Of a DNA stretch of 64,000 nucleotides, positions 48,501 to 54,500 are shown one piece after another; position 1 is the first letter of the stretch, and every line of letters starts with the position of its first letter. The stretch comes from Haliotis cracherodii (taxonomy: Eukaryota), in NCBI RefSeq assembly GCF_022045235.1, contig NW_027266273.1, positions 12,586,001 to 12,650,000 on the forward strand, written 5' to 3'. The notes under the pieces are model-generated. The model searched no databases. It saw only the letters and a program-made list of their open reading frames with translations, and was not told the DNA's origin. The translations under genes were made by a program, and so were the position numbers.

Positions 48501-51500
48501 CATTTGTAAAACTAGGATGAATTATCTCCCTTTGTTTACCCTATCCTTATTGGTTTTACTGGAATTCTTGAAATCTCTCTGAAGGAAGTAATTTTCACAT
48601 TTTGTTAACATGATTCAGCACGATATTAATCTTTTGAAATATTTTGAATTAAGTTGATTATTTTATATTAATTTATATCTGAGAAAAAAAATTAATGGCA
48701 TGAACGAAACTAAGTTGCCATCTAACTTTACCAAAGATGACATTTAACAGCATTCTTAATCTAATTCAATGTTTCAAATTAGCATGAGCTTTTAACTTAT
48801 GCCGCAAAACCTGAATGTCTATAACACAAAATTCTTATTTATAAACTGCATGTGTTAAAATTTGGTTTCCAATTTCTTTAAGTCATTGGTGATGTGTCAA
48901 TGTTACTAATAATATTAAAGTGGGATAACATACTTTAAGTTAAGGCATGAGAATGCATTAGCTGAACTAACAGTGTCGCCTAATCAGCCTCGATTTCAAG
49001 ACTGACAGTCTCTGTTTTGGTGTCTTTAAATTAACCTTTGTTTCTGTTTCAGGACATTGATTTGAACACATACCCAAATACTTGCATAGATTAGAAACCT
49101 CACGTTAGAATAATTGAATAGGTGCAAAGTTATATAGTTTCCATTTTCAAATAGATAGTGTTCTGCTTGAACAACAGTAGAAAAGCTTCACATGAGTTGC
49201 AAATTGCTTCTTGGATTTGGTTTGTTCTTGAGTTTAGTAAGAAATCTTTGGAACACAATCTAGTGATTTATTTGGACTTGAAAATAATTTTAATCATAAT
49301 CTATGATATTGAATCAATTAAATCTCACTGCATGATTTCAAAATGATTTATTTGCATGTTAAAATCTATTTAATTTTGGTTTTTCTTAAGATAATACATA
49401 ATACTCTTTGGATTTACACTTTGTCATTGGTTCAACATTCAGGTTGTAAAATTATCAGTTATTGGGTATTTGTTCATGAGGTCCAATAGTTCTAATCTGG
49501 TTTTATTCTGGATGTTAGGACTCTTTGAGGAGTGTGACAGCACTCTGTTTTCTTGACAGGTCACAGATTGCTAACATGGTGCCTTTATATTTTCAGCTGG
49601 GACAAACCATTCCTTTACCAAGTCCGACACCTCCAGTAAGTATCTTTTTCCATGTGTTACAGCAACTTTCTACATGTATGCCCGACTCTGAAAACAGCTG
49701 ATTTTGCATTATTCAATATAGGTCATATTGAACTTTGGTGTGAACTACATGCATGGAACGGAGATGTTTGAAAATCTATCTGTATGATATCCATAAGCAT
49801 ATGTCAGAATCAACTATTCTCATCAACAACAGTTAGGGATCATGAATATTTTTGGGATATTTTTATGATATTGTGTGATCAGTCTACATAAGAATATCCC
49901 CCAAAATATTCATAATGCCTCATTTTCTTTGTTCGGTATATATCTAGCAATATGCATGTATGGAAATGTTTTTGACATGAATCTTGAAAGTCTTACTGTT
50001 TCCTGTGATTTAGCTCGTTTACTTTAGTTTTCAAAATAAGGAGTATATCACACTGAAGCATCTTAGTGTTTGTCTCTGACACAGAGCACAGTGGTAATGG
50101 AGGGATCAGACAAGCTGTGGTAGGAGTTTGAAACCTTATGATCCAGTGAAATGGGTCTATCGTATTCAATGTGTTTTTGAACCCATGGTTTATTATTTGA
50201 AATTCTCCCATTGTACTAATGTGCCTAGTGTTTGTTTTGTTGTGATTTTAAATTTAACAGGTTTCCTGTTATAGTAGGAGCATGGAGATGATAGATGTTT
50301 AAAGGAGGAAAGATACATATAGATGTTATTCATATTATTCACAGTAGCCACACTAGTGTGTGGATGATGTGTGAATATTGTCTATTCTTCAGCAGAATGT
50401 TTTGATATTTAGTCAGTATCAATCTATAAGAGGTATTAGACACAATTGCCTTGGATATATGCTCATGAAATTCATAACATTGTGTTTGCATTTTGTGTAA
50501 GGTTGATTGACATCATTAATCAACTTTATGTTCATCCATTTTATGTGCCAAATATTCATTTTATGGTCTTGATGAGTTAATATACTGGGGTGCTTTCTAC
50601 TCTGTCAATTGGTGTTTTTGCTCCACAAAATGTACAATTTAGGTACGTGAATCCTTGACACTGACAGTGCATGCTCAAGGTGAATGGTTAGTTGTGTAAA
50701 TGTGTTTAAACAGCAAATGGTAATCTGCAGTTGTGAAGATGGCAAGAGATATTTTTTTTTACAAAGTTAGCTATTTCGCATGTCAATAGATTGCTGAATA
50801 TGCCTTCATGGAATGTCATTTTTTGTTTATGACCAGAAATGCTTGAATAAACAACACTCTTTGGATGAAATATTTCAAAGTCGGCACCAGGCATTCAAAT
50901 ATAGTAAAATTACCAGTCATATTTCAAATTGATAAAGTGGTTATGCAAGCATTTATGGTGTACATGATGATCAAATTTAGACAGGATCTCAGAAATTATT
51001 TTGTTGCGGTGATTTGATTTGATGCATTGCACGAGCTTCTGTCAGTTGCATTATGGCGAGCGCAATTTCAAAGGAGGTGAAAGCGCCAATAACCAGGTAA
51101 AGGTTACGCAAGACTCATACTGCGATCGTGTGGTAATGTATTATACATTGGCTATTGCGCTCATCCTCATCATCATCCTCATCCTCATCAGTGTCATGCG
51201 ACATGTTTTCATGCAATCCTGACCCATTCCTTTTCCTACGTTCTAGGTGCGCCTCCCTCCCAGCGTATCTGGCAATAGAATTACTAATAATAATGTTAGA
51301 GGGCCTGCCAATAATGGCCGTAATCAAAACAATGGCCGAAAACAAATTGGCCGAGTCGATACTACTGTAAGCTATAGGGACCGTGTAGCCGAAGAAAGGA
51401 GGAGAATGGTTGAAGAACGAGAAAGAGAAATTGAAAAAAGGCGATTACAAAGAGAAAAAATACTGGCAGAAAGGGCAAAAAGGCGACAAGAAATGGAAAA

Positions 51501-54500
51501 TAGATGGCGATCTAATAATAGACGTGTCCCTGGCAATAGGGGACGAACTCGAAACAATAGACACAATCAAAATATCACAAGGGTAAAGTTCTCTCCTGCT
51601 TTGCAAGAAAATGCTAAAACATGCACTTCCATTTCTCTATTAACAGCCTTAGATGCGCAATACAGATGCCGCTGTGATGGAACATGGTTGTTGATTCGCT
51701 GTTGCAGCGCCACATTTTAATGAGCTTACGCAGTTTAATTAACCTGGGCTGGCTGCGTTCTTTGCTCTTACACTTTGCAAGAATGCTATTGCGTTTATTG
51801 TCATTTATTGTGCATTTTTGAGTTAAACTGGAACTGTTTTTAGATAATAAAGTGTAATATTATACAAGTGGTAGTCAGTAAAATAAAAAATTTTTTAAAG
51901 ATGTTTCTTTTTTTCAGTTTTGAAATATAAATCCACATTAATTTGTCCTTTTTATTAACAAGTTTCTTGACACAACCACTGATAATATTATGCTGTAGAT
52001 TTAATCAATTTTTAACAAAATGTGTTTTTCTGGTTTACTTGAAATGATTAATTATCCTTTCATTTCCTTAATTTTCACAGACAAACTGTTCCTGGTTTAT
52101 TTGCGCTTGGCGTTTATGATAGCTTTTTTGAGCAAATATCTTCCTATATCAGCTGTTCTATATAGGAAATTCTGCAGCAACTTTATCAGATCTTTAGTCT
52201 TGCTTCTGACAGCTGTTTAGTAGGGAGTTCATTATGAGTATTATTTATATGCATGGACCTCAGTGTTGAGGTTGAAGCCACTATATCTGATATCTGATAT
52301 TTATAAACTTACGAGAGAAAATGGGACTTTAGAAAGAACATGTAGTCGTGAAATTTTAAGGAAAAAACTAGTACTACTTACGTGATTGTTAATAATCCAA
52401 CTTGTAGTCATCTTCTATGAATCCCAAATGGTTGAGGGGCTTGTCACATTATTTGGTTTCCCGATGAGAATGCAGACTTGACAGCAAGATAAGACAGCAG
52501 GCATGACAGATGTTTGGATAACAAAATTGCTGCTTAAAAATGCTATCAGATGAAAGATCATAGTATCAGCTACTGGATTTCCTGATTCAAGCCCCAGATC
52601 ACTTAATCAGCAGTATCTTTGTGGCCTACTATTGTAACTCACTAACACCTTTCTTTCTTTATGAAAAACTTTCCGTATTGCTGTCTTATTTTGTAGTCAT
52701 GTCTGTAGGTAATCTTTGACTCTACGTGTTGCTGTTCCTTCCACCAGATGTAGCACCCCTCTACCATAATAGGGACCATGGTGAATCTGACTGTAGTCTA
52801 TCCTGTCTGTTAGTTTGATGTTATGGGTAGTCACTAATGAAGGTCTGGGCCATGGCCAGTGTTACATTGTCTTGTAACAAACTGAGATCTTTGCTTTGTG
52901 TCCAGTACATTGTTTTCTGCTTCATAGGTTTCCAGGCAGCATGTGTGGCCCAGTCAACTATGGTGCTGCAATTGCCTCTGTAGAGTTGTGTCCCTTAGAT
53001 GTATCAGAATCCAATGATCATGGGTGTAAATCCCAGATGGGCTCTGATTATGATTCTTGGTTTGTCAGCACTATGCACATTTGTTTCACACAAGTGGTAA
53101 ATGAAGAACTGCCTATCTTGGGCTTTTCTCCCACATGAATCCGACATGCTGTGAGATAACTGTAATACTGTTGTAAGCAGATTCAAACCGAATTCACACA
53201 CTCCTGTGTTTCCATGTTGCAGACATGTACTGTTCTTGATCAGTTGTTGCAATGCATTGGCTAGGACACTGGAATAGCTGTAATGTCTAACTCTGTCCTA
53301 ACTGTCTCTTTCATGATTTTGGTGTTCTGAAGAATTTTTTTTTGGAATTGTAAACAGTGACCAATTTCCTTTGTTTTGAGCACAACTTAATGTTCATTTA
53401 TTATTATTGAATTTTGGTTTTGTGCACTACACAAACAACTTCGTAGAATCCTTTATTTGGCTTAAGTCTTTATAAAATTGGGTAAAAATGGAAAAGAAAA
53501 AAAAAGTAACAGACATTTTATCAAAGTTTAGGTAAGACTGTGCTTTGTGCACTGACAAAACAACTTTATACCAGTCTATCAAATGATTAAGATTTCCATA
53601 TTAGAATCCTGGCTTGGTGCTCTGTATGTGTGATATATCTCATACTGCCCAGACCATATGGTGATTGGCTTAAACCATGTCACCTCTAATGGAGTGTGTA
53701 TAGATTAGCACTGGTTTGGATAAATCCTACTGATAAAGAAGAATATTATTTCACTATTTAATTTGGTAACCTTGATTTTCAATGTTGACTTTCTAATGCA
53801 AAAGACCTACATCAAAGATGCTCTGCATAACATAATTTCTCTACTGATAAGCATGATGTTAGGTAGTTAGATTCCTTCACTTCAAACTAAAGAAAATGAG
53901 TTCTTTCTTTTTAACTGGCATTTATAAAAAACTGCCTTTTCCGTTTAATTTGCAATGATAATGCATGAAAGCATGAGTTAATACAAGTGTTGTATAAATG
54001 ATTTATTCCATTTATATGCTTTTACAATAAATCTTTTACAATTATCTCCAAAAGGATTAGAATATTTTGTGAAACATGTTTTGAAATGATAATGTATGAT
54101 TCTTAACTATTGTTAAGTGCTGAGGATTTTTGTGGATTTTTAAATCAGTTTGGAGATAATTATTGCATTCTTGCAGTGTATTCACAGTAAAATCATACTT
54201 GGAGTTTATTTATCTTTCTTCTAATATGAAAGTCTTACAGTTTATAGTAAATACTGTTGAGGTTGCTTCTTGTAATGTGTTTTGCTTGCTGGGTTTATTG
54301 AGAATAGTGTTTATAGAACATGTATGAATCTTTACTATAATATATATTACAGATTGTAGTTATACCATGTGTGATGTTATTTACTCTTTGAGACTAAAGG
54401 CTAATACAACATTTATGACTGTCTTGAGGTGTGACTATATCTAATATACACCAAGAAGCATCCACGCATGTCCTATACATAAAAATAACGGATTGTGATA

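Follow-up and report, generated by a model that had tools for sequence, protein, structure and literature searches.

The window analysed here is a 64,000-nucleotide stretch of Haliotis cracherodii DNA (NCBI RefSeq assembly GCF_022045235.1, contig NW_027266273.1, positions 12,586,001 to 12,650,000 of the forward strand), and it carries a gene that, as judged from sequence, is a multiplexin (collagen XV/XVIII) of gastropod-like character. In the hinge of its NC1 region, between the trimerisation domain (PF20010) and the endostatin domain (PF06482), lies an exon at 51247-51582 that an earlier sequence-only reading of the window had proposed as an optional, arginine-rich hinge exon. We find that this exon is a real, optional cassette, which is both included and skipped with the reading frame preserved. 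When it is skipped, the linker between the trimer-domain exon and endostatin is 34 residues long (13 + 21), and when it is included the linker reaches 146. The features of the gene are as follows.

20961..21527, forward strand: putative N-terminal thrombospondin-N/laminin-G-like domain, open for 189 aa, exon ends unmapped
31245..46441, forward strand: interrupted collagenous region with 24 Gly-X-Y runs, two of which overlap in different frames
47215..47346, forward strand: trimerisation-domain exon, 44 aa (PF20010)
48120..48266, forward strand: second optional exon, 49 aa with 16 Ser/Thr; joint into it in 4/4 runs, out of it in 1/4 (X7)
49597..49635, forward strand: 13-aa exon that closes the trimer domain and opens the hinge, the cassette's upstream partner (joints, translation)
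51247..51582, forward strand: cassette exon, 112 aa, 336 nt, phase 0/0 (translation; inclusion, exit and skipping joints)
51367..51372, forward strand: candidate internal 5' splice site, unsupported (no joint listed, contigs unbroken)
51373..51516, forward strand: predicted continuous helix, cassette residues 43-90, resembling a single alpha-helix (SAH) (single-sequence AlphaFold2 model; charge pairs)
51472..51483, forward strand: RAKR, cassette residues 76-79, the sole R-X-K/R-R of the cassette, within the predicted helix
54637..54699, forward strand: 21-aa Pro-rich hinge exon, the cassette's downstream partner (joints)
55121..58309, forward strand: endostatin domain in three exons, 55121-55318, 57417-57532 and 58096-58309 (PF06482, alignment)

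The splicing evidence comes from 8 of the 22 listed runs, all of them assembled contigs whose RNA-like or DNA-like kind was guessed and is not on record as RNA. Three joints, all GT..AG, namely 49635->51247 (inclusion), 51582->54637 (exit) and 49635->54637 (skipping), occur together in X1, X7, X13, X2, X8 and X14. They are thus found in six of the seven RNA-like runs and in none of the DNA-like ones (0/1), and the positive runs span four studies and four organism labels. Inclusion and skipping joints are found together in these six runs, which makes the exon a cassette and means that every positive sample contains both forms. A 394-nt record in X14 extends past the exon ends by 30 and 29 letters, just short of the 31 required for bridging. 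The DNA-like control is run X19, which shows a flat depth near 37 over exons and introns and has no GT..AG joint listed.

The sequence-only reading was therefore right about an optional exon between trimer domain and endostatin, and two of the junctions that it named are present. It had, however, placed the switch in a choice between two in-phase donors, at 51366 and 51582, which would give inserts of 40 or 112 residues. The joint 51366->54637 is absent among the joints listed in all eight runs, the exon is covered without a gap over 51366 in the six positive runs, and the switch observed is inclusion of the whole cassette versus skipping. By chance, a phase-0 GTAAG would fall within 112 codon boundaries with P ~0.10, and a site with 6/9 consensus positions with P ~0.68. 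Because contigs drop rare variants and 17 lower-ranked joints (3 and 14) lie outside those listed, the 40-residue form is unsupported rather than excluded. The other junction named, 51096->51247, is likewise absent among the joints listed for the eight runs. A candidate 51-nt, phase-0 micro-exon that would end there (51046-51096) has AG and GT ends and 17 open codons that are Asn/Gly-rich like the cassette; with no joint listed, both this micro-exon and the donor at 51366 stand as unsupported, not disproved.

The sequence of the cassette itself bears out much of what had been read from it. Translation confirms 112 stop-free codons, an open run with P ~7e-4 at the exon's base composition, and these hold 28 Arg, 4 Lys, 11 Glu, 2 Asp and 17 Asn, giving a strongly basic spacer (net +19), in keeping with the polyanion-binding spacer that had been suggested. 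In the acceptor, described earlier as strong, 15 of the 17 bases that precede the final three of the intron are pyrimidines, the top value among nine acceptors compared. A phase-0 GT donor closes the exon; were it left unused, the frame would stay open to 51717. Three segments can be distinguished: residues 1-43 are N/G/R-rich, residues 44-88 are E/R/K-rich and residues 89-112 are N/R-rich, with net charges of +6 for the middle segment and +6 and +7 for the flanks, and there is a potential N-glycosylation site at residue 109. The E/R/K fraction of its best 30-residue segment (0.70) is the maximum among 1244 open stretches of at least 30 codons in the window, the runner-up having 0.43. A repeat or transposon origin was rejected, since the cassette has a single genome match by protein and by DNA (at least one, among the matches listed) and lies clear of every repeat of at least 120 bases in the window. 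A Pfam search of the insert found no family, and PDB sequences gave five matches (E from 0.12 to 8.4), none of them significant.

The remainder of the gene fits a multiplexin. The putative N-terminal domain has a weak Pfam match to Laminin_G_3 (E=0.011, under the curated cut-off), and the triple helix that follows is interrupted. Ser-Gly dipeptides occur in all four of the collagen interruptions examined and are possible candidate sites for glycosaminoglycan attachment. The trimerisation domain precedes the hinge and is matched firmly (PF20010, E=3.8e-15, 56.1 bits, cut-off 23.8), and the donor of its 44-residue exon is used in 4/4 runs. PF06482 is above cut-off on two of the endostatin exons (E=9.6e-25 and 5.5e-20), and, among named sequences, the first endostatin exon comes closest to proteins of gastropods (71-77% identity). 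A stretch similar to the Pro-rich exon at 54637..54699, recognized by eye, also precedes endostatin in Nucella and Biomphalaria models.

The cassette is accompanied by a second optional exon, at 48120-48266, which precedes the 13-residue exon that completes the trimer domain. In X1, X9 and X13 the contigs continue unspliced past 48266, to 48849, 48618 and 48699, respectively, and together with the exon this suggests that splicing diversifies NC1 beyond the cassette; if the donor of this exon were unused, a stop at 48312-48314 would yield a chain without endostatin, and this read-through could instead be unspliced precursor RNA. Possible poly(A) signals lie beyond it (TATAAA at 48840 and ATTAAA at 48914). 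Elsewhere, the introns of the gene hold an inverted pair of a 716-base element with 96.5% identity (31704-32413 and 44968-45683), and a dispersed family of 240-355-base repeats occurs in the window at 8038, 11355, 14468, 19782 and 32997.

What, then, does the cassette contribute? AlphaFold2, run on the single sequence, predicts one helix over residues 43-90, with pLDDT confidence values of 94-97 for the block at residues 51-80 and 43-59 in the flanks; its 48 residues correspond to about 7 nm. Residues 44-88 are 64% E/R/K with zero Pro and zero Gly, and charge pairs at i+3/i+4 are favourable in 24 cases and unfavourable in 9 (P=0.006, 20,000 shuffles). The sequence-only reading had offered a single alpha-helix or a coiled coil here. 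The charged stretch and its predicted helix have held up, whereas no heptad signal was found in the helix (P=0.38), the best a/d register having 5/14 hydrophobic positions; residues 43-90 look like an SAH, which is a better fit than a coiled coil. We propose, with a probability of about 0.5, that splicing determines how long, how stiff and how charged the endostatin tether is. Inclusion would convert a short Pro-rich tether into a long and basic arm whose central part is predicted to be a stiff single alpha-helix; i+3/i+4 pairs of Glu with Arg or Lys would hold this helix between flexible, Asn/Gly/Arg-rich flanks. Such an arm would put endostatin farther from the trimer base and loosen the coupling among the three heads, and +19 per chain would favour binding of polyanions, for example sulfated glycosaminoglycans. 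A linker of this kind is likely to change the reach and the stickiness of the endostatin head. As the trimer domain is common to both forms, cells that make both would form mixed trimers with zero to three long arms.

Several results weigh against this proposal. One RNA-like run, X9, lists none of the three cassette joints and so has neither spliced form. Its long unspliced contigs run across the hinge introns (49596-54052 and 54120-54697), with the downstream intron spliced, and these hinge contigs reflect either intron retention or slow splicing of the region. The comparison covers close relatives, which differ by about 2%, and among them we see no sign of purifying selection on the cassette. 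The six nucleotide differences listed for the exon affect five codons, and every one of them is non-synonymous (P=0.21 by chance); five of the six are common to labels B-E and so do not count as independent. Label D has seven exon differences, two of them outside the listing, and with two samples of this label the exon has diverged as much as the flanking intron (7/336 versus 56/2834 changes, Fisher P=0.84). None of the five changed codons falls within residues 44-88 and the exon has no gaps in X7, X8 or X14, which we counted in favour of the helix, but the lack of changes in these residues is not significant (P ~0.07-0.08). A homologue search, itself weak evidence, gave no relative of the insert in 349 candidates, and neither did a comparison with 202 distinct multiplexin hinges (best E=0.49), a set in which named full-length mollusc proteins are absent. 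Furthermore, if the helix is taken as straight, its hydrophobic residues gather on a single side (four angles tried, P uncorrected: 0.018 at 100 degrees and 0.017 at 98 degrees), which suggests a packing partner.

These observations can be read in other ways. The cassette could be a recent, lineage-restricted exon of low complexity, tolerated in a permissive hinge and spliced in without any selected role. Such an exon would diverge at the intron's rate and gather non-synonymous changes as seen here, the hinges of multiplexins range from 0 to more than 300 residues with 34 of 202 at 100 or longer, and the absence of relatives extends to a metagenome scan, where 2 loci were obtained from 422 candidates and neither held an E/R/K-rich open frame of 40 codons or more (by eye). 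No distant mollusc copy was found either, the mollusc models reached being partial gastropod models and a 247-aa protein with a 31-aa hinge. Against this stand the frame and both splice sites, which are kept and in use across four organism labels; the charge pattern, which is non-random for its composition (P=0.006); the acceptor, the most pyrimidine-rich of the nine compared; and the single-copy nature of the exon, which lies outside repeats. On balance we regard a neutral exon as rather improbable. The gathering of hydrophobic residues on one face points in another direction, in which the helix would be a second oligomerisation element: copies aligned by the trimer domain would form a loose bundle, straight or with an 11-residue repeat, that keeps the distant endostatin heads in register. 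The best 11-residue registers have 6/13 hydrophobic positions, and the three chains are already aligned by the PF20010 domain. However, hydrophobics make up only 21% of the helix residues and follow no heptad pattern, and the net charge of +6 over residues 44-88, with +6 and +7 in the flanks, would make the chains repel one another. A prediction of the complex with three copies of residues 36-96 scored 0.00 and is evidence neither way. We consider a loose helix bundle a minor rival to the SAH, and a role of this kind in oligomerisation doubtful.

A further alternative, close to the one that the sequence-only reading had put forward, is a cleavage switch, in which inclusion adds a site for furin or a related convertase so that endostatin is cut off during secretion, and skipping leaves it tethered. 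The RAKR sequence indeed lies where it had been reported, fits R-X-K/R-R and is unchanged in X1, X2, X7, X8 and X14, the runs with complete difference lists. Such a motif occurs in only 1 of the 202 other hinges, so that inclusion does add one, and the cassette also has seven dibasic pairs. Precedents exist too: in the cited passages, release of endostatin tracks hinge length and site number when collagen XVIII is compared with collagen XV (PMC7852327), and endotrophin is freed from collagen VI by furin-like convertases (PMC13326520). The presence of RAKR is nevertheless uninformative because 87% of shuffles of the cassette's composition (P=0.87; 20,000 shuffles) hold at least one R-X-K/R-R, with a mean of 1.8 against the one observed. 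Its position is also unfavourable, as furin sites are described as requiring accessible and flexible flanks, the consensus alone being no guarantee of cleavage (PMC3281273, in the part cited), and RAKR lies in the best-predicted part of the helix 43-90, with the span from P14 to P6' wholly inside this predicted helix. Only one minimal R-X-X-R lies in a flexible flank, the C-terminal one (residues 102-105), and it lacks its first Arg in labels B-E. A furin switch is unsupported and, in our view, unlikely; if inclusion adds any proteolysis, the flexible Arg-rich flanks are more likely targets than RAKR.

A tether whose length, stiffness and charge are set by splicing would matter because of what is described for the NC1 region elsewhere. 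According to the cited parts of the literature, oligomeric and monomeric endostatin differ in activity (PMC2199214, PMC2199198), and the trimeric NC1 and monomeric endostatin act differently, while collagens XV and XVIII differ in hinge length and cleavage sites (PMC2199198, PMC7852327, PMC7541089, PMC13142758, PMC2199214). The same passages report that the effect of endostatin on cell migration and axon guidance is reversed between the tethered trimer and the free monomer, with relevance to synapses (PMC2199198, PMC2199214, PMC13142758), and they attribute control of the state of endostatin to proteolysis in the hinge. As NC1 activity depends on oligomeric endostatin, splicing of the hinge would tune its presentation. 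Going further, splicing, beyond proteases, might set endostatin signalling through a short tether, a cationic arm with an extracellular SAH, a Ser/Thr-rich tether and an endostatin-less chain in mixed trimers, with a strained or frayed helix gating release by convertases, an extension that we think improbable. Whatever its role, a natural pair of isoforms that differ only by a large hinge module offers a direct way to test what the length, stiffness and charge of a tether do. What limits the case is that the exon has been seen in close relatives only and that small-scale hinge splicing is already annotated in other invertebrates.

How the cassette compares with its own family was assessed on 351 fetched proteins, of which 285 had both domains (66 dropped) and gave 202 distinct hinges; a first pass had used 104 of 158 proteins (54 dropped, one domain missing). 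This set is without a named full-length mollusc protein. Its hinges have a median of 46 aa, with nine at 140 aa or longer. None of the 202 reaches the E/R/K density or the charge of the insert, in line with the earlier remark that no such helix was known in hinges of COL15/18: the densest E/R/K segment is 0.60 against 0.70, and net charge reaches +14 against +19. Five of the 202 have a density of at least 0.5, all from Meloidogyne. Short, charged, helix-compatible hinge stretches that are unrelated in sequence to the cassette occur in Meloidogyne (P0062, P0076, P0162, P0242 and P0245, E/K/R-rich) and in the multiplexin P0098 (Q/R/E repeats).

The gene shares with collagens XV and XVIII, Drosophila Mp and C. 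elegans CLE-1 the order of laminin-G/TSPN-like domain (putative here), interrupted collagen, trimer domain, hinge and endostatin. It differs in the size of the optional hinge piece, 112 aa here against 5-14 aa between annotated hinge isoforms of other invertebrates, namely Drosophila busckii, Bradysia, Diachasmimorpha and Tubulanus (4 of 16 isoform groups; in two further groups the members differ only as gene-model or assembly versions). Since such isoforms are annotated, hinge splicing as such is not new; the groups were clusters at 90% identity, in which isoforms with large inserts could be missed. In the cited parts of other reports, multiplexin isoforms vary by promoters or in their N-terminal or collagenous parts (PMC2199198, PMC13142758, PMC7852327). 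The top-ranked titles and abstract openings from literature searches mention neither a mollusc multiplexin nor an optional helical hinge exon, although Meyer and Moussian 2009 and Momota 2011 (on Drosophila Mp) may hold hinge isoforms, and the cassette isoform may already be present in public gene models of the same or related species.

Two systems outside the family offer the closest parallels. Release of endotrophin from collagen VI by a convertase resembles the cassette in having R-X-K/R-R upstream of a C-terminal bioactive domain, and differs in that the motif here is at chance level and sits in the middle of a predicted helix. The SAH (ER/K) domains of myosins, INCENP, drebrin and CAF-1 are nearer. 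Like residues 43-90 of the cassette, they are rich in E/R/K, paired at i+3/i+4, free of heptads, optional in splicing and placed as links between domains, and the cited part of one survey describes SAHs as rigid connectors that are often splice-optional (319 of 396 in human multi-transcript genes; PMC5812594). However, the SAH examples in the papers listed are intracellular proteins. The cassette helix would be extracellular, net basic, marked by a thin hydrophobic stripe and part of a trimeric collagen, and would thus represent a candidate single alpha-helix within a secreted matrix protein.

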